Assembly: GCA_964549935.1 (NCBI GenBank) | Contig: CAZJVT010000005.1 | Location: 1-56,306 of the forward strand | DNA: 56,306 bases | Source: an uncultured Candidatus Saccharibacteria bacterium | GTDB lineage: Bacteria > Patescibacteriota > Minisyncoccia > UBA6257 > 1-14-0-10-44-23 | Direction: 5' to 3' | Part shown: one piece after another, positions 23,678 through 56,283 of the stretch | Position numbering within the stretch: position 1 is the stretch's first letter | How the letters are laid out: each line of letters starts with the position of its first letter | The notes under the pieces: model-generated | Seen by the model: the letters and a program-made list of their open reading frames with translations, nothing else | Told to the model about the DNA's origin: nothing | Database searches by the model: none | Made by a program: the position numbers and the translations under genes

Positions 23678-23707
23678 GCAACTAGTTTACCATATTAAAA
23701 AATATCT

Positions 23708-23729
23708 GACGCGGCGCTTTAAGGATGCA
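23708..23729. repeat. Direct repeat copy 1 (gacgcggcgctttaaggatgca)
   Basis: 20 nt (cgcggcgctttaaggatgca) are identical to the copy at 23809-23830, 101 nt away. Confidence 0.85.
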
Positions 23730-23808
23730 AGACCGTTGAAACGCCCTTACCGCTTATGAATACATAAACGCCGGGCGTGCTCCTTGCTGCTTGATTATAA
23801 AAGCGCCT

Positions 23809-23830
23809 GTCGCGGCGCTTTAAGGATGCA
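23809..23830. repeat. Direct repeat copy 2 (gtcgcggcgctttaaggatgca)
   Basis: See copy 1. This copy is embedded in nested hairpins (aaagcgcc/ggcgcttt; gcgtgc..ccttgctgc/gcagcaagg..gcacgc). Confidence 0.85.
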
Positions 23831-23927
23831 GCAAGGGCAAAAAAGCACGCGCCGGACCGAAGGGTCTTCCCTTGGTCCGGCTGTGGCGCTCTACTTCTGA
23901 TTCGTTTCCGACCGACCGGGAGCGGTC

Positions 23928-24851
23928 CTACTTGTTGGTCGCCGCACCCACGTAGTCGGCGATGCGGTTGCGCAGGTAGTTGCTCTTGTTGGGATCGCGG
24001 AGCCATGCCTGCTCGAGCCTTGCATGCTTCGCAGCCACACGAACGGCCTTGAGGCGTTGATCCTCTGTCAGGCACAGGAAGTGCGGATCATGTGCCAGCC
24101 CCGTGAGCAATGCAACGGGGTCTCGGCAGCTGCGCGGTTCGAATGCCGGCACCGTCTCGACATGCCCGTTGCCGTTCACCGCGCTGGTGGAATCTGGCTC
24201 CGTTGTTTCGGGTTCGGGAGCAGCCTCTACCTCGACCGGAGTCTCAGCGAGAGGCGGTTCGGTAGGCGTCGGTTCTGCACTTGGCGCAGCCTCGACGATT
24301 GGATCTTGTACTGCAGGCGGAGCTACCACTTCTTCCGCCCGATCCGTAGTCGCCACCACATCGCTGGGTGGCGGCCCTTCTTCGCGCTGCCTTCTGACAT
24401 CGGCCGCACGTTGTACCTGCTCCTCTTCCTGGCGCCGCTCTTCACGGACCAGCTCGAGACAGTCCTTGATCATCTCTTCTGCGAGAGAGATCCCCTTCTC
24501 GCTCTTGATTCGAGCGAAGGCGACTTGGACGGCGAGATCCCCGTCTGGCATGCTCGGCTCGCCGTAGCGCCGGACGAGATTGAGAGCTTCGTCCAGAGAG
24601 ATCCCAACCACCACCGCCTGCTCTTCCGCGGCACGTCGCCGCGCAGCGGCTTGGGCGTTCATCCTGGCAAACTTCGCCAGGATGTTCTCCCAGCGCAAGT
24701 CCTCCCTCAACCCCCGTAGCCGAGCGTCGCTGGCCAGGAGGGCGACCCAGTTACAACTGCAGCCATCATCCGGATACAGCATTCGTCGTCTCCTTTCCGG
24801 CCACCACTTCGGCCTAGATTCAAGCCTATGCTTCAAAATAAACTCGGTCAA
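23928..24851 (-). CDS. G+C-rich hypothetical protein with a central Pro/Glu/Ala/Thr-rich linker
   Basis: 307-aa ORF with a TTG start as drawn. Codons are GC-rich at the third position, and a G+C-rich hairpin with a T-run lies downstream (23852-23880). Confidence 0.5.
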   Translation of the reverse strand: MTEFILKHRLESRPKWWPERRRRMLYPDDGCSCNWVALLASDARLRGLREDLRWENILAKFARMNAQAAARRRAAEEQAVVVGISLDEALNLVRRYGEPSMPDGDLAVQVAFARIKSEKGISLAEEMIKDCLELVREERRQEEEQVQRAADVRRQREEGPPPSDVVATTDRAEEVVAPPAVQDPIVEAAPSAEPTPTEPPLAETPVEVEAAPEPETTEPDSTSAVNGNGHVETVPAFEPRSCRDPVALLTGLAHDPHFLCLTEDQRLKAVRVAAKHARLEQAWLRDPNKSNYLRNRIADYVGAATNK

Positions 24852-25021
24852 CTTGTAGAAAAAATATAAAATTGTCTTATATAAAATGATTCACCGCTCC
24901 GAGCAACAAGCTGGAGCGGTGAAGCGAGGGAACTTATAATTTTTAGAGACGCTTCCCTCTACGCTGCGTCTTTCTTCTTCTACGGCCAGGTCATACCGGC
25001 CTCCTTTATGTAGCTACTGCG

Positions 25022-26056
25022 CTACTTCTTCGAGCCCTTGCGACTGCGGCGAGGAACACCCCCACCGATCATCTTCCCGAGCTGCGCCAGGCGCTGCCTG
25101 GCATCATGCCCGGCCGCAACCTCCTTCTTGAGCTCACGGACGATCTTCTCGTCGGCCTTTGCTCGCGCTCGAAGAGCGAGCAGGTCCGCCTCGCACTTGA
25201 CCAGAGCCGCCTTGAGAGCCGGCTCACGATGCTGCGCGAGGACGGCGGACTGCCACTCCTCGCTGCTGCGATCCTCCGCCGACTTCACCTTGGCCTCAGC
25301 CGTATCGCGGATCTTCTTGATCTCCGCGAGCGTCTGATCGAGCCTGGCCTTCATACCGGCAAGCTCCTCCCGAGCACGACCGAGTTCGCTGGAGAGCTTC
25401 TCCTGCTCGTCTCGCGAGCGGCCGACCGCCGCCCTTGCCTCCTCCAACTGCTGATGAAGCTCGTCAGCTCGTGCGGTTGCACTCGCCTCCTTACCTCGAA
25501 CGTCAGAGAGAGAAGCTGTCAGACCTCCGACCTCCTCCGTACGCCGCTGAAGCTCATTGCGCAAGCCACGAAGGTCTCCCTCCAGGCTCACGATGCGCTT
25601 CTTGGCGACATCGAGATCGGTGCGAATTCTGATCGTCTCCTCCGGGTTGAGCGCTGCGAGCTTCTTCTCCAGCTCCTCAGCCTTAGCCCAGGATTCGATG
25701 ACCATCTGATTGAGCTGGTCGCGCTCCTGCTCCTCCGTCCTGCAAGCTGGCGGCTTCAAGCCAACCAGTCGGTGAGCCGTTCGCCCCAGATCAGCTGGGT
25801 CCGTGGGTCCGTAGTAATGGACCCGTCGCTCCTGAGCCTTTCGGCGCAGAGCTGCGACCTGCCCATCGCTGAGCTCACTGCAGAGGAGCAGGTGCCCGGT
25901 GCTGCCGGGCAGGCCTGCACGAAGACGACTAGGGAGGTCATCGTCGAGAGGCCAGATGGTGATTCCCTTGCTATCGGGAAACCACCTCCGAATATCGCCA
26001 GGTGGTACCCCGACGACCAACATGGATCGAGGGCTACCGGGATTAACTGAAGACAT
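25022..26056 (-). CDS. G+C-rich coiled-coil protein with a roughly 100-aa N-terminal alpha/beta domain (DUF2325-like?)
   Basis: ATG preceded by GGAGGAAG. About 240 aa of E/K/R/L heptad-like sequence. GAG/AAG/CTC codon bias supports this strand. Confidence 0.6.
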   Translation of the reverse strand: MSSVNPGSPRSMLVVGVPPGDIRRWFPDSKGITIWPLDDDLPSRLRAGLPGSTGHLLLCSELSDGQVAALRRKAQERRVHYYGPTDPADLGRTAHRLVGLKPPACRTEEQERDQLNQMVIESWAKAEELEKKLAALNPEETIRIRTDLDVAKKRIVSLEGDLRGLRNELQRRTEEVGGLTASLSDVRGKEASATARADELHQQLEEARAAVGRSRDEQEKLSSELGRAREELAGMKARLDQTLAEIKKIRDTAEAKVKSAEDRSSEEWQSAVLAQHREPALKAALVKCEADLLALRARAKADEKIVRELKKEVAAGHDARQRLAQLGKMIGGGVPRRSRKGSKK

Positions 26057-26093
26057 AAAGGGCTTCCTCCGCTGTGAGAAATGTGACCATTCG

Positions 26094-26114
26094 AAAAACC
26101 GCCCACCAGGGCGG
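26094..26114 (-). terminator. Intrinsic terminator downstream of the tkt operon, lying in the leader of the 25022-26056 gene
   Basis: Minus-strand ccgccc-tggt-gggcgg followed by TTTTT. Confidence 0.6.
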
Positions 26115-26127
26115 CCTTCGAGAGTAC

Positions 26128-26156
26128 ATTATAGCACTATTTTATAAAAAAGTCAA
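26128..26156 (-). promoter_or_regulatory. Near-consensus sigma70-type promoter (TTGACT-17-TATAAT) on the minus strand
   Basis: The reverse complement of 26128-26156 reads TTGACTtttttataaaatagtgcTATAAT. Confidence 0.5.
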
Positions 26157-26159
26157 GAC

Positions 26160-27167
26160 CTAGGCTCTGATGGCGATTCGCCTCTCGGCAGCGCGTTTTA
26201 CGGCTGCAACGATTGCCTTTACGTCCATTCCGTACTTCGCGATGAGCTCGCGCGGAGTCCCGCTCTCGCCAAACACGTCCTGCATACCCAAAAACTCCAT
26301 CGGTGTCGGCAACTTCTTTGCCAGCACCTCCGCAACCGCTCCGCCAAGCCCACCACTGACCTGGTGCTCCTCAATCGTAACCATCGCGCCGCAGGTCCCG
26401 GCCACGTCGATAATCGCCTTCTCGTCAATCGGCTTAATCGTGTGCATATTGACTACCATCACCTCAAGCTTGTGATTCTCCTGCAACTCTTTTGCGGCCA
26501 GCAGTGCATTGTGAAGTAGTGGTCCGGCGCCAATAATGGCAACCTGCGGTTTACGGCCACGCCAAAGAATATTCGCCTTACCGGGAATAAATGGGGTTTG
26601 CTCTGTCGTAAAAACCGGAGTCTTCTCGCGGCCAAAACGCAGGTAGACCGGTCCGACAATCGCCGCGGCGGCGACCGTCGCCTTACGCGCCTCGATAGCA
26701 TCACACGGGACAAACACGCGCATGTTGGCCATCACTCGCATCGTCGCGATGTCTTCAACGGCCTGGTGCGTCGCGCCGTCCGGACCGACAGAAATACCCG
26801 CATGATGACCGGCGATTTTTACGTTGGCATCGTTATACGAAATAGTGGTGCGGATCTGTTCCCAGTTACGGCCCGGAGAAAACGTCGCGTAGGAAGCGAT
26901 AAACGGCACCTTGCCTGTTACCGCCATACCGGCGGCGACTGCAGCCATGTTTTGCTCGGCCACGCCGACTTCAAAAAATCGTTCCGGAAATTCTTTGGCA
27001 AACAAATGCGTGCGCGTAGACTCCGAAAGATCGGCAGTGAGCGCGACGACGTTTTTGTTGATTCTTCCGGCTAATACAATTCCCTCCCCGTAGCCGTCGC
27101 GCGTCGGGCGCTGGCTGATTTCGGGAGCGAAGAGGCTATCGGTAAGTTGTGCGTCTTTATGAATCAT
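26160..27167 (-). CDS. tkt: Transketolase, C-terminal (pyrimidine-binding) subunit
   Basis: Split transketolase. The start is taken at MIHKDAQL (27167), 4 nt after the stop of the N-terminal subunit. Confidence 0.85.
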   Translation of the reverse strand: MIHKDAQLTDSLFAPEISQRPTRDGYGEGIVLAGRINKNVVALTADLSESTRTHLFAKEFPERFFEVGVAEQNMAAVAAGMAVTGKVPFIASYATFSPGRNWEQIRTTISYNDANVKIAGHHAGISVGPDGATHQAVEDIATMRVMANMRVFVPCDAIEARKATVAAAAIVGPVYLRFGREKTPVFTTEQTPFIPGKANILWRGRKPQVAIIGAGPLLHNALLAAKELQENHKLEVMVVNMHTIKPIDEKAIIDVAGTCGAMVTIEEHQVSGGLGGAVAEVLAKKLPTPMEFLGMQDVFGESGTPRELIAKYGMDVKAIVAAVKRAAERRIAIRA

Positions 27168-27171
27168 ACAA

Positions 27172-28065
27172 TTATTCCAAATGGTGACACTCGATAGAGC
27201 CGCCAAGTGTTCGGATACTCTTAATAGCTGCGCGCGCCTGCTCGGCCTTCGGCGGCGCTCCGGAGACATCGCCGATGCCCGGCGGATTGCCGTGCCACTC
27301 GTAGCGTCCCTCCATATAATCAACACCCTTACCTGGAATCGTGTGCGCGATAATCACGGTCGGCTTTTCGTAAATCGCCCGCGCCTCGTTAACCGCACCG
27401 ATAAAGGCCGGAATGTCGTTTCCATTTACCTCAATCACATGCCAATTAAAGGCCTCGTACTTCGCTTTAAACGGCTCAAGCGGCATCACCTCCTCGGTAT
27501 AACCGTCTATTTGAATATTGTTGCGATCAACGACGGCGGTCAGATTGTGCAGCTTCAACTTGCCGGCAAGCATCACCGCCTCCCAGTAATTACCTTCGTT
27601 GTGCTCACCGTCGGAGGTCAAGCAGTAGGTTTGAAACTTTTTACCGTCCATCTTCGCCGCCATTGCGATACCAACCGCCTGCGACAAACCTGACCCGAGC
27701 GGTCCGGAGGTCGTTTCTAGCCCTGCAAGCGAGGTGCGGTGCGGGTGACCCTGCAACCGACTGCCGAGTTTACGCAGCGTAAAAAGCTCGTGAACTGGAA
27801 AGTAGCCGGCGTGCGCCATCGTTACGTACTGCACCGGGCAGATGTGTCCGTTACTCAAAACAAGTCGGTCCCGATCAGCCCAATTCGGCTTTTTCGGGTT
27901 GTGATTCAAAATATGAAAATAAAAAGCCGTAAAAATATCCGCCATTCCGAGCGGTCCGGCCGAGTGACCACTCCCCGCTTCAACAAGCGTCGTAATGATA
28001 TTCGCGCGAATGGCGGTGGCTTCTTTTTCGAGAAGCTTAATTTTTGCGGTCGTGAGTGACTGCAT
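27172..28065 (-). CDS. tkt: Transketolase, N-terminal (TPP-binding) subunit
   Basis: GSGHSAGPLGMADI and SDGEHNEGNYWEA TPP motifs. Confidence 0.85.
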   Translation of the reverse strand: MQSLTTAKIKLLEKEATAIRANIITTLVEAGSGHSAGPLGMADIFTAFYFHILNHNPKKPNWADRDRLVLSNGHICPVQYVTMAHAGYFPVHELFTLRKLGSRLQGHPHRTSLAGLETTSGPLGSGLSQAVGIAMAAKMDGKKFQTYCLTSDGEHNEGNYWEAVMLAGKLKLHNLTAVVDRNNIQIDGYTEEVMPLEPFKAKYEAFNWHVIEVNGNDIPAFIGAVNEARAIYEKPTVIIAHTIPGKGVDYMEGRYEWHGNPPGIGDVSGAPPKAEQARAAIKSIRTLGGSIECHHLE

Positions 28066-35386: not shown

Positions 35387-35458
35387 GCTCCTATCGTCTA
35401 ATGGTTAGGACGTCACCCTTTCACGGTGTAAATCCGGGTTCGATTCCCGGTGGGAGCG
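35387..35458 (+). tRNA. tRNA-Glu (anticodon TTC)
   Basis: Acceptor GCTCCTA/TGGGAGC, D-arm GTCTAATGGTTAGGAC, anticodon loop CTTTCAC, T-arm CCGGGTTCGATTCCCGG. Confidence 0.85.
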
Positions 35459-35468
35459 CACTGATTTT

Positions 35469-35894
35469 ATGAATATACTAACTATCAAATTGCGGAAAGA
35501 AGCCGGGTTGCCTCTTTTTGAATTCTTAATTGATGGGAAATCCTTAGAAACTATTATCACTGAAATAGAAAAGAAAAAGTTTAGTGATGATCCTGCCGCG
35601 GGTAAAAAAGCTTCTTACCAGCCAATCTCTGATCTTTACGAGAACAAGGAAAATTATTTTTTACGCTCAACAAAATTCGGTGATTTCCTCAATCAAGAAA
35701 AAGGCGCAGCCTTGCTATTGGTATGTGGCGGCTGCAGTGAATGGGGTTGCTGGAATGTATTTTGCACAATAGAGTTCTCTGATGACAAGGTAATTTGGAA
35801 AGATTTCGGAAATGGGCATCGAAACTGGCAATATGGTTTGCGTTTTGAATTCGACAAAAAAGCCTATTTAGAAGAGTTTGCTAAGCTTATATAA
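35469..35894 (+). CDS. Hypothetical protein (lower-GC block next to tRNA-Glu)
   Basis: 141-aa ORF starting 10 nt after the tRNA. Contains CGGCSEWGC. No family recognised. Confidence 0.4.
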   Translation: MNILTIKLRKEAGLPLFEFLIDGKSLETIITEIEKKKFSDDPAAGKKASYQPISDLYENKENYFLRSTKFGDFLNQEKGAALLLVCGGCSEWGCWNVFCTIEFSDDKVIWKDFGNGHRNWQYGLRFEFDKKAYLEEFAKLI

Positions 35895-35928
35895 GTTCCA
35901 ACATCGTCCCACAGGGAGCGCCAACGAT

Positions 35929-36843
35929 ATGAAATTTGAACAACCAGGAGATCCAAACAAAGGAGACGCGAAAAAGTTTGAAATGGGCCCCCTTCAATTT
36001 GCTGACGATTTTGAAGGACCCGAATTGAATTCATTTTGGGGTGTTTCAGGTCCTGAGCATAGATATGTTTTCACAAAGGAGCCAACGACCGACCAGCAAT
36101 CATTGCAGATTTCAGTGGCTCCTGGTGATTGCAAGGAAGGTAGAGTGAGAAGTCGTAAAGCGGCAAATAAGAGAGATGAAGCCGTAATGTCTGGTGACCC
36201 TGAGGCTGGGTCATACATCCCGCACGGCGCAGAACGAGAAGACACTTACATGCGTGGCAAAGCAAATTGGCTTACCGAACGTTTTGAAATAAAAGAAAAA
36301 CCAGAAAATTTTGTTAAGCCGGGGGTTGAGGTATGGTACGGGGTTTCATTTTTTGTACCTCAAGATTTCGTTATCGGAAAAAACCGCTTGGTGATCGCTC
36401 AATGGCGGGAAGAAGGTACTCACGATAAAAGTCCTGCTATGGCATTTCGTTATATAGACGGCAAGCTTCTTTTTACGATCAGCACTATAGATTTAATAGA
36501 TATAGCGGCTGGCGAAGATATAACGCTTCGTGGTTTGAAATTCGATGGTCCGGAGCTAGAGAAAGGGAAATGGTACCGGCTGAGTCTCCAGTACAAATTA
36601 GGCCGGGCAAAACCTATTACCGTGCGACATCGGATGCAGGCTACCCTTGAATGCAATGCATTTGTAAATGGAAAAAAGCTTGCAACCTATCGCGGCCCAA
36701 TAGATACAATTTCTGACGGTGGACACGGCGCAGCTCCGCAGCTCCGCTTTAGAATGGGCCTTTATCGAAATCAGGTTCCTCGCACCGATTCACTTTACTT
36801 CGCTAAATTCCGCCGAGGCGATTCAAAAGAGTTCTGCGAGTAG
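35929..36843 (+). CDS. Hypothetical protein, possibly a jelly-roll/polysaccharide-lyase-like fold
   Basis: ATG at 35929 preceded by GGGAG. The C-terminal LRFRMGLYRN pattern is reminiscent of the Polysacc_lyase family, which is weak evidence. Confidence 0.35.
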   Translation: MKFEQPGDPNKGDAKKFEMGPLQFADDFEGPELNSFWGVSGPEHRYVFTKEPTTDQQSLQISVAPGDCKEGRVRSRKAANKRDEAVMSGDPEAGSYIPHGAEREDTYMRGKANWLTERFEIKEKPENFVKPGVEVWYGVSFFVPQDFVIGKNRLVIAQWREEGTHDKSPAMAFRYIDGKLLFTISTIDLIDIAAGEDITLRGLKFDGPELEKGKWYRLSLQYKLGRAKPITVRHRMQATLECNAFVNGKKLATYRGPIDTISDGGHGAAPQLRFRMGLYRNQVPRTDSLYFAKFRRGDSKEFCE

Positions 36844-41210: not shown

Positions 41211-41735
41211 CTACCCCGTTCGGCGGACGACGATTCGGAAGCGCCGATCGAATTCCTGGTGTTGGCGGCGGCGCCACCAGTCAGGATACTTGCGTCGGGC
41301 TCGATCGCGGTCTTCAACAGCCTGCATGACCGCAGAGAGGGCCTTGCGCCTCAGAGTCACCGGATTGTAGAATCGCAGCCGGTGAACGATTGCGAATCCA
41401 TACCCGTACTCCCGTGCAAGACGCGCCTGCTTGTGCTTGTGAGGCTCCTTCTTCCCCTTTTCATGGACGATCTTCCGGCCGAACTTACGCACATCGATGA
41501 GGATGTCGAGCTCGGGCAGGTAGATATCGATCATAGTGCCGCACCAGACAGAGTTACCCTGCTTGTCGCGACGCTCCTCCCGTAGGAAAATCGTCGCGCT
41601 CTCAACTTCGAGATTCAGCTCCTGAGTTAGGACGATGAGGATGTCGATCTCCTCTTTGAGCAACTCACGGCGGGCAGCCGGGAACCCAACACCGCGCGAA
41701 CCGATGATGGGCTCAATCTGCACTTCATACTTCAT
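41211..41735 (-). CDS. G+C-rich cassette protein, possible DUF559/Vsr-like (PD-(D/E)xK fold) endonuclease
   Basis: ATG preceded by AAAGGAGG. IDIYLPELDILIDVRKFGRKIVH ... LAREYGYGFAIVHRLRF resembles the DUF559 core. Assigned from memory only. Confidence 0.45.
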   Translation of the reverse strand: MKYEVQIEPIIGSRGVGFPAARRELLKEEIDILIVLTQELNLEVESATIFLREERRDKQGNSVWCGTMIDIYLPELDILIDVRKFGRKIVHEKGKKEPHKHKQARLAREYGYGFAIVHRLRFYNPVTLRRKALSAVMQAVEDRDRARRKYPDWWRRRQHQEFDRRFRIVVRRTG

Positions 41736-41780
41736 GAGCCCCTCCTTTCGGGACTTTGCTACCCTACCAAATTTTGCCCC

Positions 41781-41806: not shown

Positions 41807-41812
41807 CTCTGT

Positions 41813-43006: not shown

Positions 43007-43110
43007 ATATCTTATTGTACTCGTTAATTATGAAGATTCAAAGGTTGGTACTCGGGTGCCCGGCCGCCTTGAGGCGGCAACGGGCACCCGCGCGATTCGG
43101 CTTTCGCCGA

Positions 43111-43299
43111 TTACTCCGACTTGGGAGGGGCAGCAGTAGGCCCATCCGCCTGACACTTCGGGCAGCTTTCGGCCAGCGGCGCGCCGAGATCATCGAACTC
43201 CCGCCCTGCTGCAGCCTGACACTTGCAGACCTGTTCGCAACCCATCGTCCACTCTCCTCTTGAGGAGCCCTCGCTGGTACAAATAAACCGTTTACTCAT
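43111..43299 (-). CDS. G+C-rich small Cys-rich protein (62 aa, 6 Cys including CKC and CPKC)
   Basis: ATG preceded by GGGGAGGG. A G+C-rich nested hairpin lies downstream (43053-43092). Confidence 0.4.
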   Translation of the reverse strand: MSKRFICTSEGSSRGEWTMGCEQVCKCQAAAGREFDDLGAPLAESCPKCQADGPTAAPPKSE

Positions 43300-43527
43300 A
43301 CCAGCGACCCTCCCCGAGAAAAAAGAAAACCGCTCGGGGAGCGGTGGTATGAGAGACGTTATACAACAAAACTACCGCGTCCGAGGGTTGAGAGTAAATG
43401 CGCGATAAAAGAAAACGAAATTGAGTTGTACGGCCGGGCGAGAATTCATATATGAAAAGAATAAGCGAAATACAAAATCCCGTCAAACTATCCTCCCTCC
43501 CCCGCACTACACAATATCCGGACCTTG

Positions 43528-43551
43528 TTACAGTGTACTAGTACACTGTAA
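43528..43551. promoter_or_regulatory. 24-nt perfect palindrome TTACAGTGTACTAGTACACTGTAA (trp-operator-like), remote copy
   Basis: Shares 26 nt (ccttgttacagtgtactagtacactg) with the site at 54785-54810 in inverted orientation. On the minus strand it overlaps a GTTACT-17-TACACT promoter-like pattern. Confidence 0.5.
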
Positions 43552-43688
43552 CGTAGTAACTTATATGAAAATACTTCGGCGAGCTCAGCATAAATCGAAA
43601 GGGTCTCCTTCAGCCGGAGCTGAAGGAGTCCCTTCGCGCGGGGTAGCTCCCCCAATCTCACCACTCTCGTAGGTGACACGCCTTTCGT

Positions 43689-44504
43689 TTAGAAACTCAG
43701 CGTCACTGCGACGCCGAAGACCTCCTGGTGCTGCCGGTCCCGCTCCTGATACGGACCGAACTCTTTGACGAAGACCTCGGCGCTCACACCGTCCGAGATC
43801 TTGCACTCCAGCCCGATCCGCCCAGTGAGCGTCCAGCCCGTATCCACGACCTTGGCAATGCCGCAGTCGTAGAGCGCGCTGACACCGACCTTGAGCGAAA
43901 CCGGCCCGACGACCTTGACGCTGTAATCCGCGCCAAGGGTCGCCGTAGGACGCCGCCCGAGTTCCGGAAGTAGCCCGAGACGACACTCGACCTGGGCGTA
44001 CGGCTTGAGTTTGCCCGCACTTCCAAAGTCAAAGTCCTTGCCGAACTTGAGCCGAGGGATCAGGATGTCTCCCCGACTCTGCGACTCCGGCAGGAGGTCC
44101 AGATACAGCAGATCGGCGGTCACCCACCAACTCCGCTCGAACTTCCAAGTATGGCCGACCGTGAAGTCCACCTCGTCGGACGACGTCTTCACGCCACCTG
44201 ACTCCTGAAGTCCAGTGGACCACCAGATGCCGACGTGCCAGCCGCTCGGCTCGCTCACGAGAAGCTCGGTCTGAACTGCTGGCTCGTCGCGCAGCAGTCC
44301 GCCGAAGTACCGCACGTCCTTGCTCACGTAGGTGCTCGTGAGCCTCACCTTCCACGACTCGGCCGTCTCCTTGACGACCGGGGGTTGCGCGACGACGGAG
44401 TTGACCGCCGCCGCAAGATCACTCTTCATCTCCTGCGCCTGCGCGACCGTCGCGCTGACATACGAGAGAAGCACGAACAGGACATAAGATAGTGACCGGG
44501 ACAT
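43689..44504 (-). CDS. G+C-rich outer-membrane-type beta-barrel protein (Gcw_chp-like?), copy 1
   Basis: Signal peptide MSRSLSYVLFVLLSYVSATVAQAQ, alternating-hydrophobic strands, and a C-terminal VTLSF with terminal Phe. Start taken at the ATG at 44504. Confidence 0.6.
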   Translation of the reverse strand: MSRSLSYVLFVLLSYVSATVAQAQEMKSDLAAAVNSVVAQPPVVKETAESWKVRLTSTYVSKDVRYFGGLLRDEPAVQTELLVSEPSGWHVGIWWSTGLQESGGVKTSSDEVDFTVGHTWKFERSWWVTADLLYLDLLPESQSRGDILIPRLKFGKDFDFGSAGKLKPYAQVECRLGLLPELGRRPTATLGADYSVKVVGPVSLKVGVSALYDCGIAKVVDTGWTLTGRIGLECKISDGVSAEVFVKEFGPYQERDRQHQEVFGVAVTLSF

Positions 44505-44569
44505 GGGAACTCGCTTTCCGGGGCTTCTACCCCTTCCCTGTGAATGAGCTACTATCAACAGCGCCTACC

Positions 44570-44584
44570 TTGACGCTTTTGTCA
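44570..44584. promoter_or_regulatory. Inverted repeat TTGAC-N6-GTCA in the divergent intergenic region (candidate operator)
   Basis: ttgacgcttttgtca. The equivalent TTGAC-N5-GTCAA lies at 47298-47312 in the second module. Confidence 0.35.
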
Positions 44585-44650
44585 GATTAGTATAGATTAA
44601 TGGAGTGGCCAACGGTGCCATAGGGTGCTTGTCGCCACCACATACAATTA

Positions 44651-44685
44651 TTAGAAATTAGTAATTGGAAATTAGAAATTTCAAA
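44651..44685. repeat. Heptamer tandem repeat (TTAGAAA-like x5)
   Basis: ttagaaa ttagtaa ttggaaa ttagaaa tttcaaa, immediately before the ATG at 44689. Confidence 0.85.
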
Positions 44686-44688
44686 AAC

Positions 44689-45444
44689 ATGTACCAGGAA
44701 GTTTTTGAGGGTCTCGGTCTCTCCCCTAACGAGGCGAAGATTTACGAAACGCTCGTCGTGCACGGCGAATTAGGTGTGAGTGAAATCGCCACACGCTCAC
44801 AAATCCACCGCCGCAACGCCTACGACGCAATTCGCCGCCTCATCGACAAAGGATTGTGTTTTGAAATTATTTCGAAAAAAGAAAATTTATATAACGCAGT
44901 TGATCCGGGGAAGCTCTTAGAACTCACTGAAGAAAAACGCCAGTCAATTGAAAATATTTTGCCGGATTTAAATAAAAAGTTTCACCACCGAGCTTCAACC
45001 GAAGAGGCGTTTATCTACAAAGGCTACGAAGGCCAGAAAAATATCTGGCGAGAGATCCTACGCGTTGGCCAGGATATTTATATCATTGGTGCCAAAGCAC
45101 AGTGGTTTGATGCAAAACTTGATGCTGCTCGCGATGCTTTTTATCGCGAAACCAAACGCAAAAAAATGACCTTTCGCTTGCTCCTCGACCAAGAGGTGCG
45201 AGAACGGCTTCCTAATTTTACGGAGACTTATCCCGGACTGATGGAGCACCGCTGGCTGCCGAAACAGTCTTCAACAAGCGCGATCGTCGTGACCTTTGGC
45301 GACTACGTCGTGATGTATGCTGGTGTCGGAATTATGAAAATGGACGATAACACCGTATTCTTTGTCATCAAAAGTGCTGCTCTCGCCGAAGGCTATCGTG
45401 CCTGGTTTAAAAATATGTGGGAACAGAGTAAGGAAAATAAATAA
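44689..45444 (+). CDS. TrmB-family transcriptional regulator, copy 1
   Basis: N-terminal winged HTH: GLSPNEAKIYETLVVHGELGVSEIATRSQIHRRNAYDAIRRLIDKGL. ATG at 44689 is preferred over the TTG at 44665. Confidence 0.7.
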   Translation: MYQEVFEGLGLSPNEAKIYETLVVHGELGVSEIATRSQIHRRNAYDAIRRLIDKGLCFEIISKKENLYNAVDPGKLLELTEEKRQSIENILPDLNKKFHHRASTEEAFIYKGYEGQKNIWREILRVGQDIYIIGAKAQWFDAKLDAARDAFYRETKRKKMTFRLLLDQEVRERLPNFTETYPGLMEHRWLPKQSSTSAIVVTFGDYVVMYAGVGIMKMDDNTVFFVIKSAALAEGYRAWFKNMWEQSKENK

Positions 45445-45492
45445 TCTTCACTCAACCATCTGCACGGATAGTTAAATACGAGCCATGAGATC

Positions 45493-46134
45493 TCAAGCGG
45501 CTGAACTCCTAAGCTGGGCCGCAGTTTCGGCGCTTAGCAAATGCAAAAGTTCTTTGGCGCTGCGATCTTCGATAACCCGTGGCTTGCCGTCTACAAATTT
45601 TTTAGCGTCATTCACGTTACAAATTTTGCTGTCTGGCCGCAAAATACCTCGCGCTACCAAATCGTCGAGCATCACGTGGCAATCGGGACAGGGATGCAAT
45701 GCGTCATCGGCCTGATCCACATCTAAACCGCGCACGACACGCGATGTATTAGTCTCACGCGATACAGTCACGATACCGATGATAATCGGGTACGGATGCC
45801 CGGCCTGCGCAGCTCCAATGGCGTTACGTTCAGCGCAGCGTTTGTATACACCTTCGACCGGTATGTCTTTGGGCTTAAAATTATGCCCGGAAAATTCCTT
45901 GTACTCGCCGCTCTGCCCGTCCATACTAGGGAACCATGCAAGCACCGCACACCCTACTTTAAACGGCCGCTCTTTACGGTGCGAGACTGCATTGTCACGC
46001 GCTAGGGCGGCCTTTTCAATTAATTCATCTCGGTGGCGATCAAAATAAGCGAGGTGCTCCTGCATCTGCTCGGGAGTAAGTTTTGCATACTCCGGTCGCT
46101 CCAAAGAATGAACCGCCTCCATATTCCCAGTCAT
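45493..46134 (-). CDS. Cytidine/deoxycytidylate deaminase-family zinc enzyme
   Basis: CAERNAI (C/H-A-E) and PCPDC zinc-ligand motifs. N- and C-terminal extensions are atypical. Confidence 0.55.
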   Translation of the reverse strand: MTGNMEAVHSLERPEYAKLTPEQMQEHLAYFDRHRDELIEKAALARDNAVSHRKERPFKVGCAVLAWFPSMDGQSGEYKEFSGHNFKPKDIPVEGVYKRCAERNAIGAAQAGHPYPIIIGIVTVSRETNTSRVVRGLDVDQADDALHPCPDCHVMLDDLVARGILRPDSKICNVNDAKKFVDGKPRVIEDRSAKELLHLLSAETAAQLRSSAA

Positions 46135-46195
46135 AGATTCATACTAAAATAATTTTCCTTTCTTGTTAAGTGAAACGCGTATGCAAAACGAGTAC

Positions 46196-46221
46196 GGGGC
46201 GGTCACAGCTGTGACCGCCCC
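46196..46221 (-). terminator. 26-nt perfect palindromic G+C-rich hairpin downstream of beta-barrel gene 2
   Basis: ggggcggtcacag/ctgtgaccgcccc. Confidence 0.5.
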
Positions 46222-46298
46222 GCGCTTGAAGTAGCTCCTTCATCTCACCACTACGCAGGTGACTCGCCTTTCGTTTACGTTGCCCATGTTGCTGATGC

Positions 46299-47111
46299 TC
46301 AGAAGTTGAGCGTCAGCGAGACGTCTAGGCTGCCGACGTCCTTGCGGTCCTCGATGGTGTGACCCATCCAGTAACGCTCGTAGCCGATGCCGGCCACCAC
46401 GGACTTGCTGTCATTGAGCGGGACATCGAGTCCCACCCGCCAGCGCAGCAGGTTGCCGCTCGGTGTCTCGCTCGTCCCGTTGTCGTAGACGTACTTCACG
46501 GTGTTCGTGAGCGCCGCCCCGCCGATGCCGAGGTCGATGCTGTGGCTGACGCCGACGGTCGTGATCCACCGGTCCAACCCCATAGGCATCAGAATCGCGT
46601 CCTCGAGCTTGATACTGGGCGTGAGCGTCCCGCCCGTACCCAAGTCGAACGTCGTCGAGACCACGATGGACGGGTCGAGGATGTCCCCATCGCCATCACC
46701 GAGCTCGTATAGGTCGAAGTAGCCGACCGCCGCGTCGAACCGGAAGGTCCGACCCAGAAGATCGAACTCCTTCCCGTAGCCGATGGTGTAGTCCACCTCG
46801 TCGGCGAAGTCGGCGTCGAAGTCCTTGTACGAACCGCCCGAATGCCAGAAATCGAGCGAGAACCCGCAGGGCAACAATGCGAACACATCCTGCTGGGGCG
46901 CCGAACCGTTGGCGTAACCGTTGCCGGTCACGTAGTCGGTCTTGTACGTCAGCTTCAGCGAAACGGCCGGCGTCCAGGGGTCCTTCGACTCCTGCGTGAC
47001 GACGGAGTCGACCGCCGCCTGCAGATCTGACGACTGTCCGTCCTCGCTGCGCGCCACGTTGGCGCACAGACCAAAGACTGCCAGAACGACGAAAACGATT
47101 GCCTTCCTCAT
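46299..47111 (-). CDS. G+C-rich outer-membrane-type beta-barrel protein (Gcw_chp-like?), copy 2
   Basis: Signal peptide MRKAIVFVVLAVFGLCANVARS and C-terminal SLTLNF. Shares SDL.AAV.SVV.Q, DEVD(F/Y)T(V/I)G and GDIL.P with copy 1. RBS is GGGAG. Confidence 0.65.
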   Translation of the reverse strand: MRKAIVFVVLAVFGLCANVARSEDGQSSDLQAAVDSVVTQESKDPWTPAVSLKLTYKTDYVTGNGYANGSAPQQDVFALLPCGFSLDFWHSGGSYKDFDADFADEVDYTIGYGKEFDLLGRTFRFDAAVGYFDLYELGDGDGDILDPSIVVSTTFDLGTGGTLTPSIKLEDAILMPMGLDRWITTVGVSHSIDLGIGGAALTNTVKYVYDNGTSETPSGNLLRWRVGLDVPLNDSKSVVAGIGYERYWMGHTIEDRKDVGSLDVSLTLNF

Positions 47112-47297
47112 AAGTCACCCATCTCCCTTCCCTGGCTTTGTCTTTGCGCGGCCTCATTGGCCACGATCTTAGACTTAGCCACCCCGAACACGATTGATTT
47201 CAGTCGAGGTAGCGAGGTTTTAGAGCTATTTAGACTCATTCCCCGATACCCGGACTGAAATCTCTTTTCAACGTTCTCCAATCAGTTTAATCTATTT

Positions 47298-47312
47298 TTG
47301 ACAAATAGTCAA
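47298..47312. promoter_or_regulatory. Inverted repeat TTGAC-N5-GTCAA (candidate operator; also the -35 of a minus-strand TTGACT-17-TAAACT promoter)
   Basis: ttgacaaatagtcaa. The minus-strand -10 TAAACT lies at 47284-47289. Confidence 0.35.
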
Positions 47313-47397
47313 ATTAGTTTCAAAATAAATATATACAAACTTGCTTTTTTTGCCTTAAATGCTTTATAATAATGACATATATTTTTTTGACACTATT

Positions 47398-48144
47398 ATG
47401 GACATTCAGAATGAGCTCAAAAAACTAGGCCTAAAGAAATCGGAGAGCAAACTTTATCTGTATTTGCTCGAGAAAGGAGCCTCTACCCCGCCGAACATAG
47501 CCAAAGGCACTGGTATCGCCCGAACAAACTGCTACAACCTCTTAAGGGGGCTTGAAAATAAGGGCATGGTCCAAGTCCAGGGTGCGCAAAAGAGCAAAGC
47601 CTACGTCGCCCGTGATCCGGCCACGCTCCTGACCGGCTTAGAGCAAAGAATGGAAGCGGCCAAACGCATCGTGCCAGAACTTCGCGATTTTTATACCACG
47701 CAGAAGAATAAGCCAAAAATCAGATTCTTTAGCGGCTGGGATGAGGTAAAAGAGTTATACCTCTTAACACTCGAAACTGAAAAACTTTTTGCCGTCGGCT
47801 CGACCGAGACAATCGCAAAAATTGATAAGAAATTCCTTGAGTCATATTGGCATGAGCTTGCGAGCCGGAAAATCATCTTTGACAGCGTGCTGATGGCCAG
47901 CGCTAAATCGAAAACGGCTCTCGAAATAAAAGCCGTTGCGGGAGCTTTGCGCACCGACAGGTTTCTACCAGAAAGGTTCGGTGACGAGCCGATGGACATG
48001 TTCATCTGGAACGACAACATCGCTCTAATCGCCCTCTCTGATCCTGTTTTCGGAACGCTCATTACCGATGCTGCTCTGGTTCGCGTACTGAAAATCATGT
48101 TCGGTGCGCTCTGGGAAGAGCTCGGAAGACGAAATGATAATTAG
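47398..48144 (+). CDS. TrmB-family transcriptional regulator, copy 2
   Basis: GLKKSESKLYLYLLEKGASTPPNIAKGTGIARTNCYNLLRGLENKGMV. ATG at 47398, with TTGCTT-18-TATAAT upstream (47341-47370). Confidence 0.7.
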   Translation: MDIQNELKKLGLKKSESKLYLYLLEKGASTPPNIAKGTGIARTNCYNLLRGLENKGMVQVQGAQKSKAYVARDPATLLTGLEQRMEAAKRIVPELRDFYTTQKNKPKIRFFSGWDEVKELYLLTLETEKLFAVGSTETIAKIDKKFLESYWHELASRKIIFDSVLMASAKSKTALEIKAVAGALRTDRFLPERFGDEPMDMFIWNDNIALIALSDPVFGTLITDAALVRVLKIMFGALWEELGRRNDN

Positions 48145-48151
48145 TAAAACT

Positions 48152-48204
48152 AAAAATCCCCGCTTGGGCGACGCTCATCAGCGTTTAGCCTCGCGGGGAT
48201 TTTA
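48152..48204. terminator. Bidirectional compound hairpin between convergent genes
   Basis: Outer stem aaaatccccgc ... gcggggatttt with inner hairpin acgct-catc-agcgt. Confidence 0.6.
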
Positions 48205-48229
48205 GTTTCTTCTATCTACTAACTACTGT

Positions 48230-48850
48230 CTACTTTGTGTCTTTCGCCTCCGTGCGGCTCGTCTTGATCATCTCATCAATCAGGCCGTACTCCTTCGCTT
48301 CGGCGGCACTCATGTAGTAGTCGCGGTCGGCGTCCTTCTCAATCTTCTCAACCTTCTGGCCGGTGTGCTTAGCAAGAATATTGTTGAGCTTGGCCTTCAT
48401 TTTGAGAATCTGTTTGGCAGTGATTTCGATATCGCTCGCCTGACCCTCGGCGCCACCCATCACCTGGTGAATTAAGATCTCCGAGTTCGGGAGCGAGAAG
48501 CGCTTGCCCTTGGCGCCGGCGGCGAGAATGACGGCGGCCATCGAAGCGGCCATACCGACACAAATAGTCGAAACCTCCGGCTTCACAAACTGCATCGTAT
48601 CGTAAATCGCCATACCGGCGACGACAGAGCCGCCCGGGCTGTTGATGTAGATCTGGATATCCTTTTTCGGATCCTCGTGCGCCAGGAACAAAAGCTGCGC
48701 GATAACCAAGTTAGCGACAGCGTCGTTAATCGGGCCACCGAGGAAGATGATACGGTCTTTAAGCAAACGCGAGTAGATGTCGTAGGCACGCTCACCATAC
48801 TGCGTCTTCTCAAGAACCGTCGGGATGAGATACTGGTTTGTAATTTCCAT
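48230..48850 (-). CDS. clpP: ATP-dependent Clp protease proteolytic subunit
   Basis: [19 protein letters not shown], catalytic GMAASMAA Ser context and a His/Asp region. Confidence 0.95.
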
Positions 48851-54288: not shown

Positions 54289-54307
54289 AATCTGGTATAG
54301 TTCAGAT

Positions 54308-54772: not shown

Positions 54773-54810
54773 TTGACTATGTATCAGTGTACTAGTACAC
54801 TGTAACAAGG
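54773..54810 (+). promoter_or_regulatory. Promoter (TTGACT-17-TACACT) overlapped by a trp-operator-like palindrome CAGTGTACTAGTACACTG
   Basis: -35 at 54773-54778, -10 at 54796-54801, palindrome at 54785-54802. Lies about 70 nt upstream of the TrpR/YerC-like gene. Confidence 0.5.
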
Positions 54811-54872
54811 ACTAATTCGACTCGTTCTATTGAGTAGAGAATGCCTTAGCGATAGTTGAAGAAAAAAATATT

Positions 54873-55151
54873 ATGAACCCACATTATAAAAAAGAGCTTT
54901 TGAAGGTCATCGTGCAGGCAGCAAAGGACCAGCGCCTGCTTGATGCGCTTATGAACGACCTCCTCACGCCGGAGGAGTATCGGGAACTTACGAACCGCTG
55001 GCAGATTGTAAAGCGCTTGTCGCAAGGCATAGGACAACGCACGATTGCGCAGGAGCTTAAGGTTGGCGTCGCAACAGTAACTCGCGGTGTACACGTACTC
55101 GAAAATGAAAATGGGGGATTCAATCAATTGCTCGAAAAAGTCCACGTTTAA
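54873..55151 (+). CDS. TrpR-like protein, YerC/YecD family
   Basis: 92 aa. LLTPEEYRELTNRWQIVKRLSQGIGQRTIAQELKVGVATVTRG matches the Trp-repressor-family HTH. Confidence 0.65.
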   Translation: MNPHYKKELLKVIVQAAKDQRLLDALMNDLLTPEEYRELTNRWQIVKRLSQGIGQRTIAQELKVGVATVTRGVHVLENENGGFNQLLEKVHV

Positions 55152-55317
55152 TATGAAAAATATCTACACAATAATTAGTCTTCGCTGGTGGCTCGCCCAA
55201 ATAGTTCCAAGGGCGTGCTTTGTGTTGGCATAACGATTTTTTTATAAATCCGTTCGAACTCAAAACCCGCTCTTGGAGCGGTGTTTTCTATGCCGAATAG
55301 GCGGAAGGAGATTCTTT

Positions 55318-55515
55318 GTGGGTGGGTGGAACGGCAGTGGACCTGATCTCGATACCTTCCACGGAATGGAGGAGGTGAGGGCGTGTAAGCACGGCAAGGT
55401 CGCCGGACAGTGCCCGGGCGATGCCTTCGATGGCAACTGTCCGCCCCTCGGTCGCGACGAGAAGCCGTCGTGCCGCCCCGTGTTTATCCCGCAGGGCGGG
55501 TGGGAGCTCGACTGA
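55318..55515 (+). CDS. G+C-rich small Cys-containing protein (about 65 aa)
   Basis: GTG at 55318 lies 7 nt after GGAAGGAG. The frame is the one reported as ORF 55273-55515. 4 Cys. Confidence 0.35.
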   Translation: MGGWNGSGPDLDTFHGMEEVRACKHGKVAGQCPGDAFDGNCPPLGRDEKPSCRPVFIPQGGWELD

Positions 55516-55625
55516 TGGAGGAAACCCTCCACTACGTCCGACTTGTTGCAGCGCTCGTCGGACTCGCACTAATTGGACTCGTCGGCCTCCACGGCCTCAT
55601 CTCGAAGCTGCGTCGAGAAAGATGA
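55515..55625 (+). CDS. 36-aa single-helix membrane peptide, translationally coupled (TGATG overlap)
   Basis: MEETLHYVRLVAALVGLALIGLVGLHGLISKLRRER. The ATG shares its A with the preceding TGA. Confidence 0.3.
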   Translation: MEETLHYVRLVAALVGLALIGLVGLHGLISKLRRER

Positions 55626-55967
55626 CGAGAGCAACCCTTGGGCTCCGCTCGAACGGAGCCCATCGGAAGAACTAACACCTGACTATGAATACATTTTTTG
55701 GAAAAATATATTCGGCATTAGAAACATTTTTATTTTCGCGTCAGGCCGGCTGGTATGACACGGGCATACGTAATGATGGCGATTTTAGATTGCTTGAGCA
55801 CCGAGACAAAAATGGTTTCGTAACCAGCGAATTCTGGGAAGAAATACACTAGCGATGAAATCATCCTGGGCAGAAATACAATCCACTGAAAAATTCGGAA
55901 ACTTTTCGCTGGATTCTACTTCCTCCGTCCGCGATGCCCTGGGCACCGCGGACGGAGGGAACTGCGA

Positions 55968-56114
55968 CTAGCGCGGGCTGATGCCCGCAAACGGACTCGG
56001 CACGGGCCGCACGTTGCCATCGGCATCGCAGGCGGCCTTCACCGCCGCGAGCGTCTCGGACGAGAGCTTCTTGTCCGGGGTGTCGGACGCCGACGGCACC
56101 GTCTTGTCGATCAT
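55968..56114 (-). CDS. G+C-rich small protein (48 aa)
   Basis: ATG at 56114 preceded by AGGGAGG at 7-nt spacing. A 12-bp perfect hairpin lies downstream (55922-55958). Confidence 0.3.
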   Translation of the reverse strand: MIDKTVPSASDTPDKKLSSETLAAVKAACDADGNVRPVPSPFAGISPR

Positions 56115-56283
56115 GCTCGATCCTCCCTGTTTGGCCTTGTGGCCACCTCCGTCCTCTCCCAAGAGGCCGGCGTAAAAATATATTTTCTATTCTTACGTCG
56201 ACCCCTTATCAAAGACAAAGTCGCCTTACGAGGCGATGAAATAATACTACCGCAAATAAGAAATGGGTCAAGAAATGCCGTTG

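Follow-up and report, generated by a model that had tools for sequence, protein, structure and literature searches.

The GC-Rich Genes of the Window

The DNA analyzed here, called the window throughout, is a stretch of 56.3 kb (56,306 nucleotides, 51% GC) from an uncultured Candidatus Saccharibacteria bacterium (contig CAZJVT010000005.1), whose core genes are typical of Saccharibacteria (TM7, Patescibacteria). Scattered between these lower-GC core genes, the backbone, are short GC-rich open reading frames (ORFs), which an earlier sequence-only reading had described as eight gene cassettes, mostly equipped with Shine-Dalgarno (SD) sites and perhaps acquired piecemeal from high-GC donors. The ORFs and the hairpins that follow them are listed below, with GC content as a fraction and with the energy of the duplex formed between SD and anti-SD sequence.

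23928..24782, minus strand: GC-rich ORFan of 284 amino acids (aa) with an acidic Pro-rich middle; GC 0.628; SD GGAAAGGAGA
23851..23881, minus strand: GC-rich terminator hairpin after 23928 with 13-nt arms; -32.0 kcal/mol in a 50-nt window
25022..26056, minus strand: GC-rich ORFan of 344 aa; GC 0.627; SD GGAGGAAG, duplex -9.5 kcal/mol
24890..24923, minus strand: perfect 11-bp hairpin after 25022
26090..26156, minus strand: promoter-like TTGACT-17-TATAAT, then a hairpin and a T run, upstream of 25022 (putative function)
41211..41735, minus strand: moderately GC-rich gene of 174 aa between tyrS and murC; GC 0.579; SD AAAGGAGGGG, duplex -12.4 kcal/mol
43111..43299, minus strand: small GC-rich, Cys-rich ORF of 62 aa, coding status uncertain; GC 0.598; SD GGGGAGGG, duplex -11.3 kcal/mol
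43053-43090: hairpin after 43111; -37.0 kcal/mol
43689..44504, minus strand: barrel2, predicted porin-like beta-barrel of 271 aa with signal peptide and C-terminal Phe; GC 0.625, GC at third codon positions (GC3) 0.80
43599-43634: hairpin after barrel2
46299..47111, minus strand: barrel1, predicted porin-like beta-barrel of 270 aa; GC 0.626, GC3 0.87; SD GGGAAGGGAG
46195..46222, minus strand: perfect 14-bp palindromic terminator after barrel1; -33.4 kcal/mol
55318..55515, plus strand: GC-rich, Cys-rich ORF of 65 aa; GC 0.662; SD GGAAGGAG, duplex -9.4 kcal/mol
55515..55625, plus strand: hydrophobic peptide ORF of 36 aa, overlapping the 55318 ORF as TGATG; hairpin at 55639-55662
55968..56114, minus strand: GC-rich ORF of 48 aa; GC 0.687, GC3 0.92; SD AGGGAGGA, duplex -10.9 kcal/mol
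55922-55958: 18-bp hairpin after 55968; -37.4 kcal/mol

The eight flagged ORFs are in fact nine, since 55318-55625 contains two. As a compositional class they are sharply set apart: their GC content of 0.58-0.69 places each of them above all 51 backbone genes (mean 0.500, standard deviation 0.041, maximum 0.563), with no overlap between the two sets (Mann-Whitney p=4.5e-10). The GC excess seen by eye in the sequence-only reading is therefore real, and the base counts sampled there (41, 35 and 31 of 60) are exact. Its picture of eight GC-rich coding genes needs some correction, because 41211 is only moderately GC-rich and because 43111-43299 shows no codon periodicity. Nor does each unit sit alone in its gap, as had been stated: three gaps contain two units. 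A 120-bp profile resolves sharp-edged GC islands at 23700-24740, 24950-25930, 43020-43200, 43600-44460, 46180-47100, 55290-55590 and 55880-56110. Such deviations are rare elsewhere: in a control set of 45 unrelated bacterial loci with 659 ORFs, just 2.3% of the ORFs exceed the median GC of their locus by 0.07.

The shift extends beyond synonymous sites. GC3 ranges from 0.62 to 0.92 in the eight ORFs, compared with a backbone mean of 0.56, and GC1, GC2 and amino-acid usage are shifted as well. In the GC-rich ORFs, AAG accounts for 95% of the Lys codons (47% in the backbone), ATC for 87% of the Ile codons (50%) and TTC for 81% of the Phe codons (39%). The products are biased to Gly, Ala, Arg and Pro (GARP); Arg makes up 8.1% of residues compared with 4.5% in the backbone, Asp is also more common, and Ile, Asn and Phe are rarer. 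Deviating composition, one mark of a genomic island, is thus present. Translational codon selection was rejected as the sole cause, given the shifts in GC1, GC2 and amino-acid usage and given that ribosomal protein and pilin genes are not GC3-rich, the pilin genes of the window having ordinary GC3. In the case of barrel1, the GC enrichment is mostly limited to the coding sequence.

GC Excess Is Linked to the Mode of Translation Initiation

The second distinguishing feature lies directly upstream of the start codons. The SD strings quoted in the sequence-only reading are all present, and for six cassettes the anti-SD duplex energy is -8.7 to -12.4 kcal/mol, as against about +3 to -4 kcal/mol for nearly all backbone genes. 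A seventh strong SD belongs to 23928, which had been read as a gene with a TTG start and with no ribosome-binding site noted. Its start is most likely ATG 24782, preceded by GGAAAGGAGA; the database gene call of 284 aa agrees with this position, and TTG 24851 is less likely.

A pooled set of 166 genes combined those of the window with those of six fragments that are related to it or contain a barrel gene, and genes at least 0.07 above their locus median were called GC-rich. A strong SD precedes 26 of 35 GC-rich genes and only 5 of 131 others (odds ratio 73, p=5e-18). Conversely, 2/35 GC-rich and 56/131 core genes have a TAnnnT box at a distance of 4-11 nt before the start (p=1.6e-5). These counts bear out the earlier description of a backbone without ribosome-binding sites and often with a -10-like box before the ATG. 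With 126 of 131 core genes lacking a strong SD, and with the position of the box relative to the start, core genes are probably transcribed mostly as leaderless mRNAs. Most bacteria of the candidate phyla radiation (CPR) keep an anti-SD (PMC9297842). In the literature searched, we found no description of a linkage between GC excess and SD use.

Leaderless transcripts dominate in Actinobacteria and Deinococcus (group C of GeneMarkS-2, PMC6028130), including mycobacteria (PMC4633059, PMC3898074). As in those genomes, the core here has a -10-like box near the start and no SD, and a minority of genes is apparently leadered and SD-led. Unlike there, the leadered class also differs by +0.07 to +0.25 in GC. 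We know of no report of such a compositional split for Actinobacteria or Deinococcus.

At Least Four Units Have Positional Homologues in Related Genomes

The closest match in a species-representative genome collection, and the sole relative returned by a scan with TyrRS, is L001, a metagenome-assembled genome of an uncultured Candidatus Saccharibacteria bacterium (TyrRS 76% identical). Two further relatives, L002 and L004, have core genes of 0.43-0.51 GC with hypothetical genes of 0.57-0.64 GC between them, the GC3 of which reaches 0.88. Where homologues occur at the same position, they are again GC-rich: this applies to the barrels and the 41211 family in L002 and L004, and to 43111 in L001. 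The proteins of the 41211 family in the tyrS/murC gap are diverged (40% identity in L002, 27% in L004), and the 43111 homologue in L001 is partial (56% over 34 aa). Judged from these positional matches in related Saccharibacteria, 41211, 43111, 43689 and 46299, and hence at least four of the eight units, are inherited and were not inserted singly into this genome.

The GC-rich genes are present in L002 and L004, some of them also in L087, and are absent from L001 save for the partial 43111 homologue. Conservation within the lineage, which would have spoken against acquisition as the sequence-only reading put it, thus applies to part of the set. The occupancy of the gaps differs between relatives: the tyrS/murC gap measures just 68 bp in L001, a closer relative, and is filled in L002 and L004. 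The combination expected of a classical horizontally acquired genomic island, absence from close relatives together with a foreign sister group, was not found, four units having positional homologues and the searches having returned no foreign homologue.

The 41211 unit is flanked on both sides by the murC promoter and the first murC codons (GTAGGGTA and CGAAAGGNGGGGCTCA). Within 41090-41815 (minus strand), GTAGGGTA and CGAAAGG(A)GGGGCTCA are the sequences of the bracketing copies. Of these, the upstream one is the orthologue of the L001 murC promoter; it has come to stand before the 41211 cassette, and its former Glu-Lys-Gly codons now act as the cassette's SD. L002 lacks this duplication in the same gap.

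We fetched the contexts of six more barrel relatives, selected by the length of their contigs (L087, L089, L090, L093, L094 and L095). All of them are small-genome, CPR-like contexts and none is a high-GC host; the barrel genes have 0.56-0.62 GC and the surrounding genes 0.32-0.57. Over all nine contexts, the barrel family stays at 0.56-0.63 GC above backbones of 0.36-0.52. The extreme case is L089, labeled Patescibacteria group bacterium at NCBI, where a barrel GC3 of 0.87 compares with 0.22-0.37 in the core and 0.32-0.36 in the ribosomal protein genes. Neighboring hypothetical genes and an OPT transporter also show GC excess in barrel contexts, several of them with an SD, and the GC-rich class in relatives includes sigma-like and RNA-polymerase-alpha-CTD-like proteins. 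A metagenome scan with the barrel alignment gave no match. A second scan anchored on the H+-pyrophosphatase, which was swamped by a universal motif, yielded only two relatives: L007, which is close but short, and L058, a distant member of the CPR that has SDs on core genes and no barrel.

The Barrel Genes Are Paired with TrmB Regulators

The two largest conserved units encode the barrels, which are paralogues with 28% identity. Each is divergently paired with a low-GC, SD-less TrmB regulator and shares control elements with its relatives:

44505..44664, between the divergent genes: barrel2/TrmB control region with TTGGCC-17-TATACT and an upstream box
44665..45444, plus strand: TrmB regulator type A, GC 0.45, no SD, divergent from barrel2; Pfam TrmB E=2.5e-15
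47112..47290, minus strand: predicted structured 5' leader of barrel1, about 165 nt, conserved in three genomes
47359..48144, plus strand: TrmB regulator type B, divergent from barrel1; Pfam TrmB E=3.4e-16
46240..46280, minus strand: conserved 3' motif GAAAGGCGWGTCACCTRCG..AGTGGTGAG after barrel1; second copy at 43650-43692, minus strand

Among 5.8 billion protein clusters, barrel1 has only two homologues, P0002 (61%) and P0003 (53%). Both are encoded in the clpP-to-tyrS interval beside divergent TrmB genes, on contigs of 601,890 and 633,618 bp. Orthologues of barrel2 lie at L002:16176-16973 and L004:11803-12573. The type A pairing with barrel2 recurs in L002, L004 and L087, and the type B arrangement with barrel1 adjoins clpP in L002 and L004. 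The TrmB-like genes had earlier been counted among the conserved neighbors of the cassettes; they are instead the partners of the barrels within the variable region and are absent from L001.

Sequence conservation extends into the noncoding DNA. Besides the window, the conserved region 44505-44664 is found in three genomes, L002, L004 and the more distant L087; its box GTGGTGGYGAC...CTATGGCACC is probably the TrmB operator. From three sequences, RNAalifold predicts that the leader of barrel1 folds into two hairpin domains, and compensatory changes affect 12 of the 42 predicted pairs. The leader has no Rfam match, even at E<=1, and is a candidate for a new cis-regulatory RNA. The 3' motif stands just past the stop codon of both barrels and of their orthologues, and also of a small lipoprotein-like gene that is unrelated to them; in every case the terminator hairpin comes after it. 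It has no match in 1.1 Mb of unrelated loci. Further copies of this motif of about 45 nt (GAAAGGCGWGTCACCTRCGAKAGTGGTGAG..GGGGAGCTACCCC) are located at L002:10803-10860, L004:9690-9745 and L004:10811-10870. Because of the TrmB pairing, the conserved promoter and operator region, the covarying leader and the common 3' motif, the barrels are domesticated, regulated genes and not newly landed cassettes. In L087, a second TrmB gene (L087:1274-5426) is divergent from genes for a 480-aa protein and an OPT-family transporter, with GC of 0.54-0.57 and an SD in front of the transporter. TrmB regulators may generally control the GC-rich gene class.

The AlphaFold (AF2) model of barrel1 shows a 13-strand beta-barrel behind a signal peptide (mean predicted local distance difference test score 69.5, predicted template modeling score 0.67). 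Its best matches in the PDB are porins and comparable barrels of the outer membrane, namely OmpG, NanC, Tsx, CymA and FapF, with a Foldseek probability of 1.0 to OmpG, NanC, Tsx and FapF. A profile search retrieved 630 barrel relatives. The barrels of the window end in F, as do 103 of 149 relatives, and 21 of 47 sampled relatives match Pfam Gcw_chp (PF09694) at E<0.01. The predicted fold, the signal peptide, the C-terminal aromatic residue, the length of about 250-270 aa and the 12-14 predicted strands fit the putative porins of the TorF/Gcw_chp type (PF09694, TIGR02001), a likeness confined to these two genes. Unlike those proteins of Gram-negative bacteria, the window barrels score below the curated cut-offs, are found in Patescibacteria and are paired with TrmB: barrel2 reaches 22.5 of the 24 bits of PF09694 and 19.6 of the 47.15 bits of TIGR02001, and barrel1 matches neither. 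Patescibacteria are thought to lack an outer membrane, and a C-terminal Phe is a hallmark of outer-membrane insertion in Gram-negative bacteria. The site of porin-like barrels with signal peptide and C-terminal Phe in Patescibacteria may be the symbiont envelope or the host surface.

The Remaining Units Are Strain-Specific

The two larger ORFans, 23928 and 25022, are strain-specific, as are the units at 55.3-56.1 kb. Among 5.8e9 protein clusters, 23928 and 25022 each find only themselves. The first shows a period-3 GC pattern of 0.73/0.47/0.69 and is preceded by a promoter-like TTGACC-17-TAGGCT. The product of 25022 consists of an N-terminal domain followed by a long coiled coil, and Pfam, PHROGs and NCBIfam gave only weak matches of the coiled-coil type. 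Upstream of it, at 26090-26156, lies a near-consensus promoter with an extended TG. Less than 15 nt further on, and still before the SD of 25022, come a GC hairpin and a T run; this hairpin is either the transketolase terminator within the cassette leader or an attenuator. Neither 23928 nor 41211 has a sequence match to a solved structure.

At the end of the window, 55318-55625 forms a two-ORF mini-operon with TGATG overlap, the second product of which is a hydrophobic peptide. No relatives of the two small units in this region were detected in the fetched loci. Only these units lie near a tRNA, an apparent partial one at the window end that was recognized by eye and not called by ARAGORN.

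Substitution Patterns of the Barrel Genes

Synonymous sites were compared among barrel orthologues of three genomes. In barrel1, 56% of these sites are identical in all three genomes, compared with 25-31% in the core, and the protein is nonetheless more diverged. The GC-to-AT rate per site is 0.13 in the barrels and 0.35 in the core (p=1.5e-14), whereas the AT-to-GC rate of 0.43 is equal in both. In a two-state likelihood analysis, the model in which the barrels have the same age and the same process as the core is rejected (likelihood ratio statistics of 31.9 for barrel1 and 10.2 for barrel2, 4 degrees of freedom).

The amelioration framework for horizontally acquired genes, in which foreign DNA slowly approaches the composition of its new genome, reportedly goes back to Lawrence and Ochman. 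Plain vertical amelioration of an ancient import is excluded by the substitution tests, so that either alleles have been exchanged among related lineages or fixation in this class favors GC. Parsimony counts were discarded as proof of a GC-rich equilibrium, since parallel GC-to-AT changes may mimic AT-to-GC changes, and the likelihood comparison was used instead.

The core genes show trends of their own. On the window branch they gain GC at synonymous sites (156 AT-to-GC and 69 GC-to-AT changes), whereas the L002 and L004 branches lose GC. These opposite trends indicate that the backbone composition is itself shifting within the clade.

A Proposed Long-Lived Accessory Gene Class

We propose, with moderate confidence, that the GC-rich ORFs are genuine genes and belong to a separate accessory class which has long persisted in this lineage of Saccharibacteria and occurs more widely in Patescibacteria. 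Each unit would be transcribed on its own, from a promoter situated in an AT-rich spacer, through a 5' untranslated region with an SD and then the ORF, up to a GC-rich hairpin as terminator. The units would occupy gaps of a lower-GC core that mostly does without SD and often carries a -10-like box 4-11 nt before the start. The ancestor that this genome shares with its relatives would already have had at least four of the units, and two of these, the barrels, would have become connected with divergent TrmB regulators, with a structured leader and with a common 3' motif. It is plausible that the class ultimately came from a foreign source that was GC-rich and used SDs. The GC-rich state persists longer than simple amelioration at backbone rates permits, being either renewed by allele exchange among related lineages or held by a bias against fixation of GC-to-AT changes. 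Such a class-specific bias could consist of biased gene conversion at recombination-prone accessory loci or of selection tied to leadered, SD-dependent mRNAs. The near-constant GC of the genes over varied backbones and the lack of sampled donors lead us to lean toward a GC-rich state that is maintained.

Several points weigh against this proposal. No donor and no phylogenetic evidence of a foreign origin was obtained from the sequences compared. The likelihood analysis does not separate younger, decaying alleles from genes with their own equilibrium at GC3 0.78-0.86 (p=0.08 and 0.43), and the raw polarized counts for the barrels amount to a net loss of GC (36 GC-to-AT and 16 AT-to-GC changes). 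These tests cover three taxa with 62-118 sites per gene, and the parsimony counts are distorted by parallel changes. That core mRNAs are leaderless, that SDs are used and that the 16S rRNA has an anti-SD is deduced here, the window containing no rRNA. The assignment of L090 and L093-L095 to Patescibacteria is drawn from gene content. Finally, there is an ascertainment bias, as the relatives were mostly found via the barrel gene and each therefore has at least one GC-rich gene.

A bolder version of this proposal, which we put forward only tentatively, divides Patescibacteria genomes into two compartments, a lower-GC, largely leaderless core (0.36-0.52) and a GC-rich, SD-dependent set of envelope, host-interface and regulator genes that is actively held near 0.6 GC. 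A class-specific force, either strong GC-biased gene conversion or selection on leadered mRNAs, would be responsible in place of import from the host. The porin-like barrels might be the most conserved members of this set and act at the host surface.

Two alternatives deserve to be weighed in full. According to the first, the units are separate and fairly recent imports from a high-GC, SD-using donor such as the host, taken up for instance by competence via type IV pili, and are now passively ameliorating. The composition shifted at all three codon positions with its GARP bias, the SD and terminator carried by each gene, and the type IV pilus locus in the window agree with it. So do the varying occupancy of the gaps, exemplified by the empty tyrS/murC gap of L001, and the strain-specific ORFans 23928 and 25022. 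The net flux on the L002 and L004 branches of the barrels (30 GC-to-AT and 6 AT-to-GC changes) points the same way, and a model of younger genes with the backbone equilibrium stands in the likelihood test. However, relatives carry positional homologues of at least four of the eight units, with native regulatory wiring. All searches for a source came back empty: PHROGs gave coiled-coil noise only, no match resulted from tblastn against 50,697 phage records or from blastn of 23700-26100 against PLSDB, and scans of IMG/VR with 23928, 25022 and the barrel profile were negative, which led us to reject a phage, prophage or plasmid origin. No donor of the GC-rich genes emerged and no close homologue outside related Saccharibacteria was detected among 5.8e9 clusters; the six further barrel relatives are all in CPR-like contexts, and a gene GC of about 0.6 over backbones of 0.36-0.52 would be odd for unrelated imports. 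Recent import of the whole set thus appears unlikely. The piecemeal acquisition from high-GC, SD-using donors suggested by the sequence-only reading retains the foreign-like composition, the SDs and the changing gap occupancy in its favor and fails for the at least four units that are old residents. The host as donor is unsupported, with no donor detectable and with all barrel relatives sampled outside the clade in Patescibacteria-like contexts.

The second alternative dispenses with a foreign origin altogether: the genes would be native, and high GC and SD would have been selected in a differently expressed class with, for example, stable, structured, leadered mRNAs for regulated envelope or host-interaction proteins, which would depend on an SD for want of access to the AT-rich or leaderless route. 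This would account for the persistence of GC-richness in orthologues across lineages, for the three-fold lower GC-to-AT rate at an equal AT-to-GC rate, for the confinement of the barrel1 enrichment mostly to the coding sequence and for the elaborate leader, operator and 3' motif. The products also fit, comprising secreted barrels and a transmembrane peptide and, in relatives, the OPT transporter and the sigma-like and RNA-polymerase-alpha-CTD-like proteins. We nevertheless regard it as doubtful. GC1, GC2 and amino-acid usage are shifted too, the low GC3 of the L089 ribosomal protein genes shows that high expression does not generally go with a preference for GC-ending codons, the pilin genes of the window have ordinary GC3, and strain-specific ORFans fit ancient native genes poorly.

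Hairpins and Gaps Do Not Reveal an Insertion System

The sequence-only reading had also raised an unrecognized cassette-insertion mechanism, and a site-specific system, integron-like or otherwise, that fills intergenic gaps could explain why each unit is short and has an AT-rich spacer and a 3' hairpin as its boundaries, why the murC promoter and 5' end are duplicated on both sides of the 41211 unit, and why the same gaps are occupied in different genomes. Its presumed hallmark is the hairpin at the end of each cassette. Strong downstream hairpins of -29.6 to -37.4 kcal/mol are found in five of the eight cassettes, so that this claim stands for part of the set, and hairpins at or below -29 kcal/mol also follow 4 of 51 backbone genes. 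As equally strong hairpins follow core genes, those of the cassettes look like ordinary intrinsic terminators, and we rejected them as a cassette hallmark.

Other expected traces are missing as well. As stated before us, there is no integrase or transposase: Pfam finds none of their domains among about 60 ORFs scanned, and no recombinase was found in the 56 kb. Flanking direct repeats do not exceed chance for seven of nine units tested, the exceptions being those around 41211 and 55968, and no shared att-like motif or consistent target-site duplication was found at the units; mobility genes with flanking direct repeats, as in a genomic island, are thus not seen. Like integron cassettes, the units are short, mostly contain a single ORF and end in an imperfect or perfect inverted repeat. 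Unlike integron cassettes, they come without IntI and without an attI or attC consensus, and their terminator-like hairpins have no common sequence or architecture. Neither do they form a promoterless, co-oriented tandem array, being scattered over 32 kb with promoter-like sites of their own and long leaders. Together with the absence of the promoter duplication from the same gap in L002, these observations make an insertion system very improbable.

Integrity of the Assembly and Other Features of the Window

Assembly chimerism, the trivial alternative named in the sequence-only reading, in which contaminating high-GC fragments would have been joined into a Saccharibacteria contig, has the sharp compositional edges in its favor and can be dismissed as having a negligible chance, because independently assembled Logan contigs from two runs (SRR14271336 and SRR14271332) match the window at 100% over 21187-27795 and 41916-48311 and cross every junction of five of the eight units, and because a like architecture recurs in independently assembled genomes (601,890 and 633,618 bp). 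The units at 41.1-41.8 kb and 55.3-56.1 kb lie outside the cover of these contigs.

The core genes of the window comprise the following groups:

Type IV pilus locus and others: PilB, PilC, pilins (pilus locus), HisRS, FtsA, FtsZ
Sugar-metabolism genes: PfkB kinase, split transketolase, Rpe, RpiB, GAPDH
Other core genes: RecG, glutamate dehydrogenase, MurC, TyrRS, ClpP, trigger factor, H+-pyrophosphatase, NusA
tRNAs: tRNA-Lys, tRNA-Glu

In a search for known RNA families, only the two tRNAs reached the gathering score, and 43000-47400 gave no match at E<=1. Directly after tRNA-Glu lies a low-GC islet (35387-36843) with a 141-aa ORF of 0.37 GC and a gene with a polysaccharide-lyase domain (GC 0.46, GC3 0.40). 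L001 has other genes at this site, and the difference in gene content indicates that variable spots hold AT-rich as well as GC-rich cargo.

Relation to Known Gene Classes and Significance

Compositionally atypical accessory genes are already known, and GeneMarkS-2 defines an "atypical gene" class for them (PMC6028130). The units described here share with atypical or horizontally acquired genes the deviant GC, codon and amino-acid usage, the many ORFans and the patchy presence; one island may also lie next to a tRNA, the apparent, partial one at the window end. They differ in that they are GC-richer than the backbone and not AT-richer, that several old positional orthologues are still deviant, that no integrase or donor was found, that the deviation is tightly linked to the initiation architecture, and that one family keeps about the same GC over very different backbone GC. 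Lassalle and colleagues are said to have shown in PLoS Genetics in 2015 that GC-biased gene conversion raises GC in recombining bacterial genes. Such a process would resemble our observations in the increase of GC at all codon positions of a gene subset, the reduced fixation of GC-to-AT changes and the fast protein evolution; the GC3 excess of up to +0.3 to +0.55 in our data greatly exceeds the reported sizes.

If the two-class architecture holds genome-wide, GC excess combined with an SD would serve as a simple marker of accessory genes in uncultivated episymbionts. These genes probably take part in host interaction, and most of them are ORFans that defy annotation. Start-codon models trained on the core would then mis-start the GC-rich class, as happened with 23928. 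The same architecture would offer a natural test case for what sustains high GC against AT-biased mutation in tiny genomes, and the TrmB-controlled, porin-like barrels with their unrecorded structured leader would become candidates for a role in nutrient exchange between symbiont and host.

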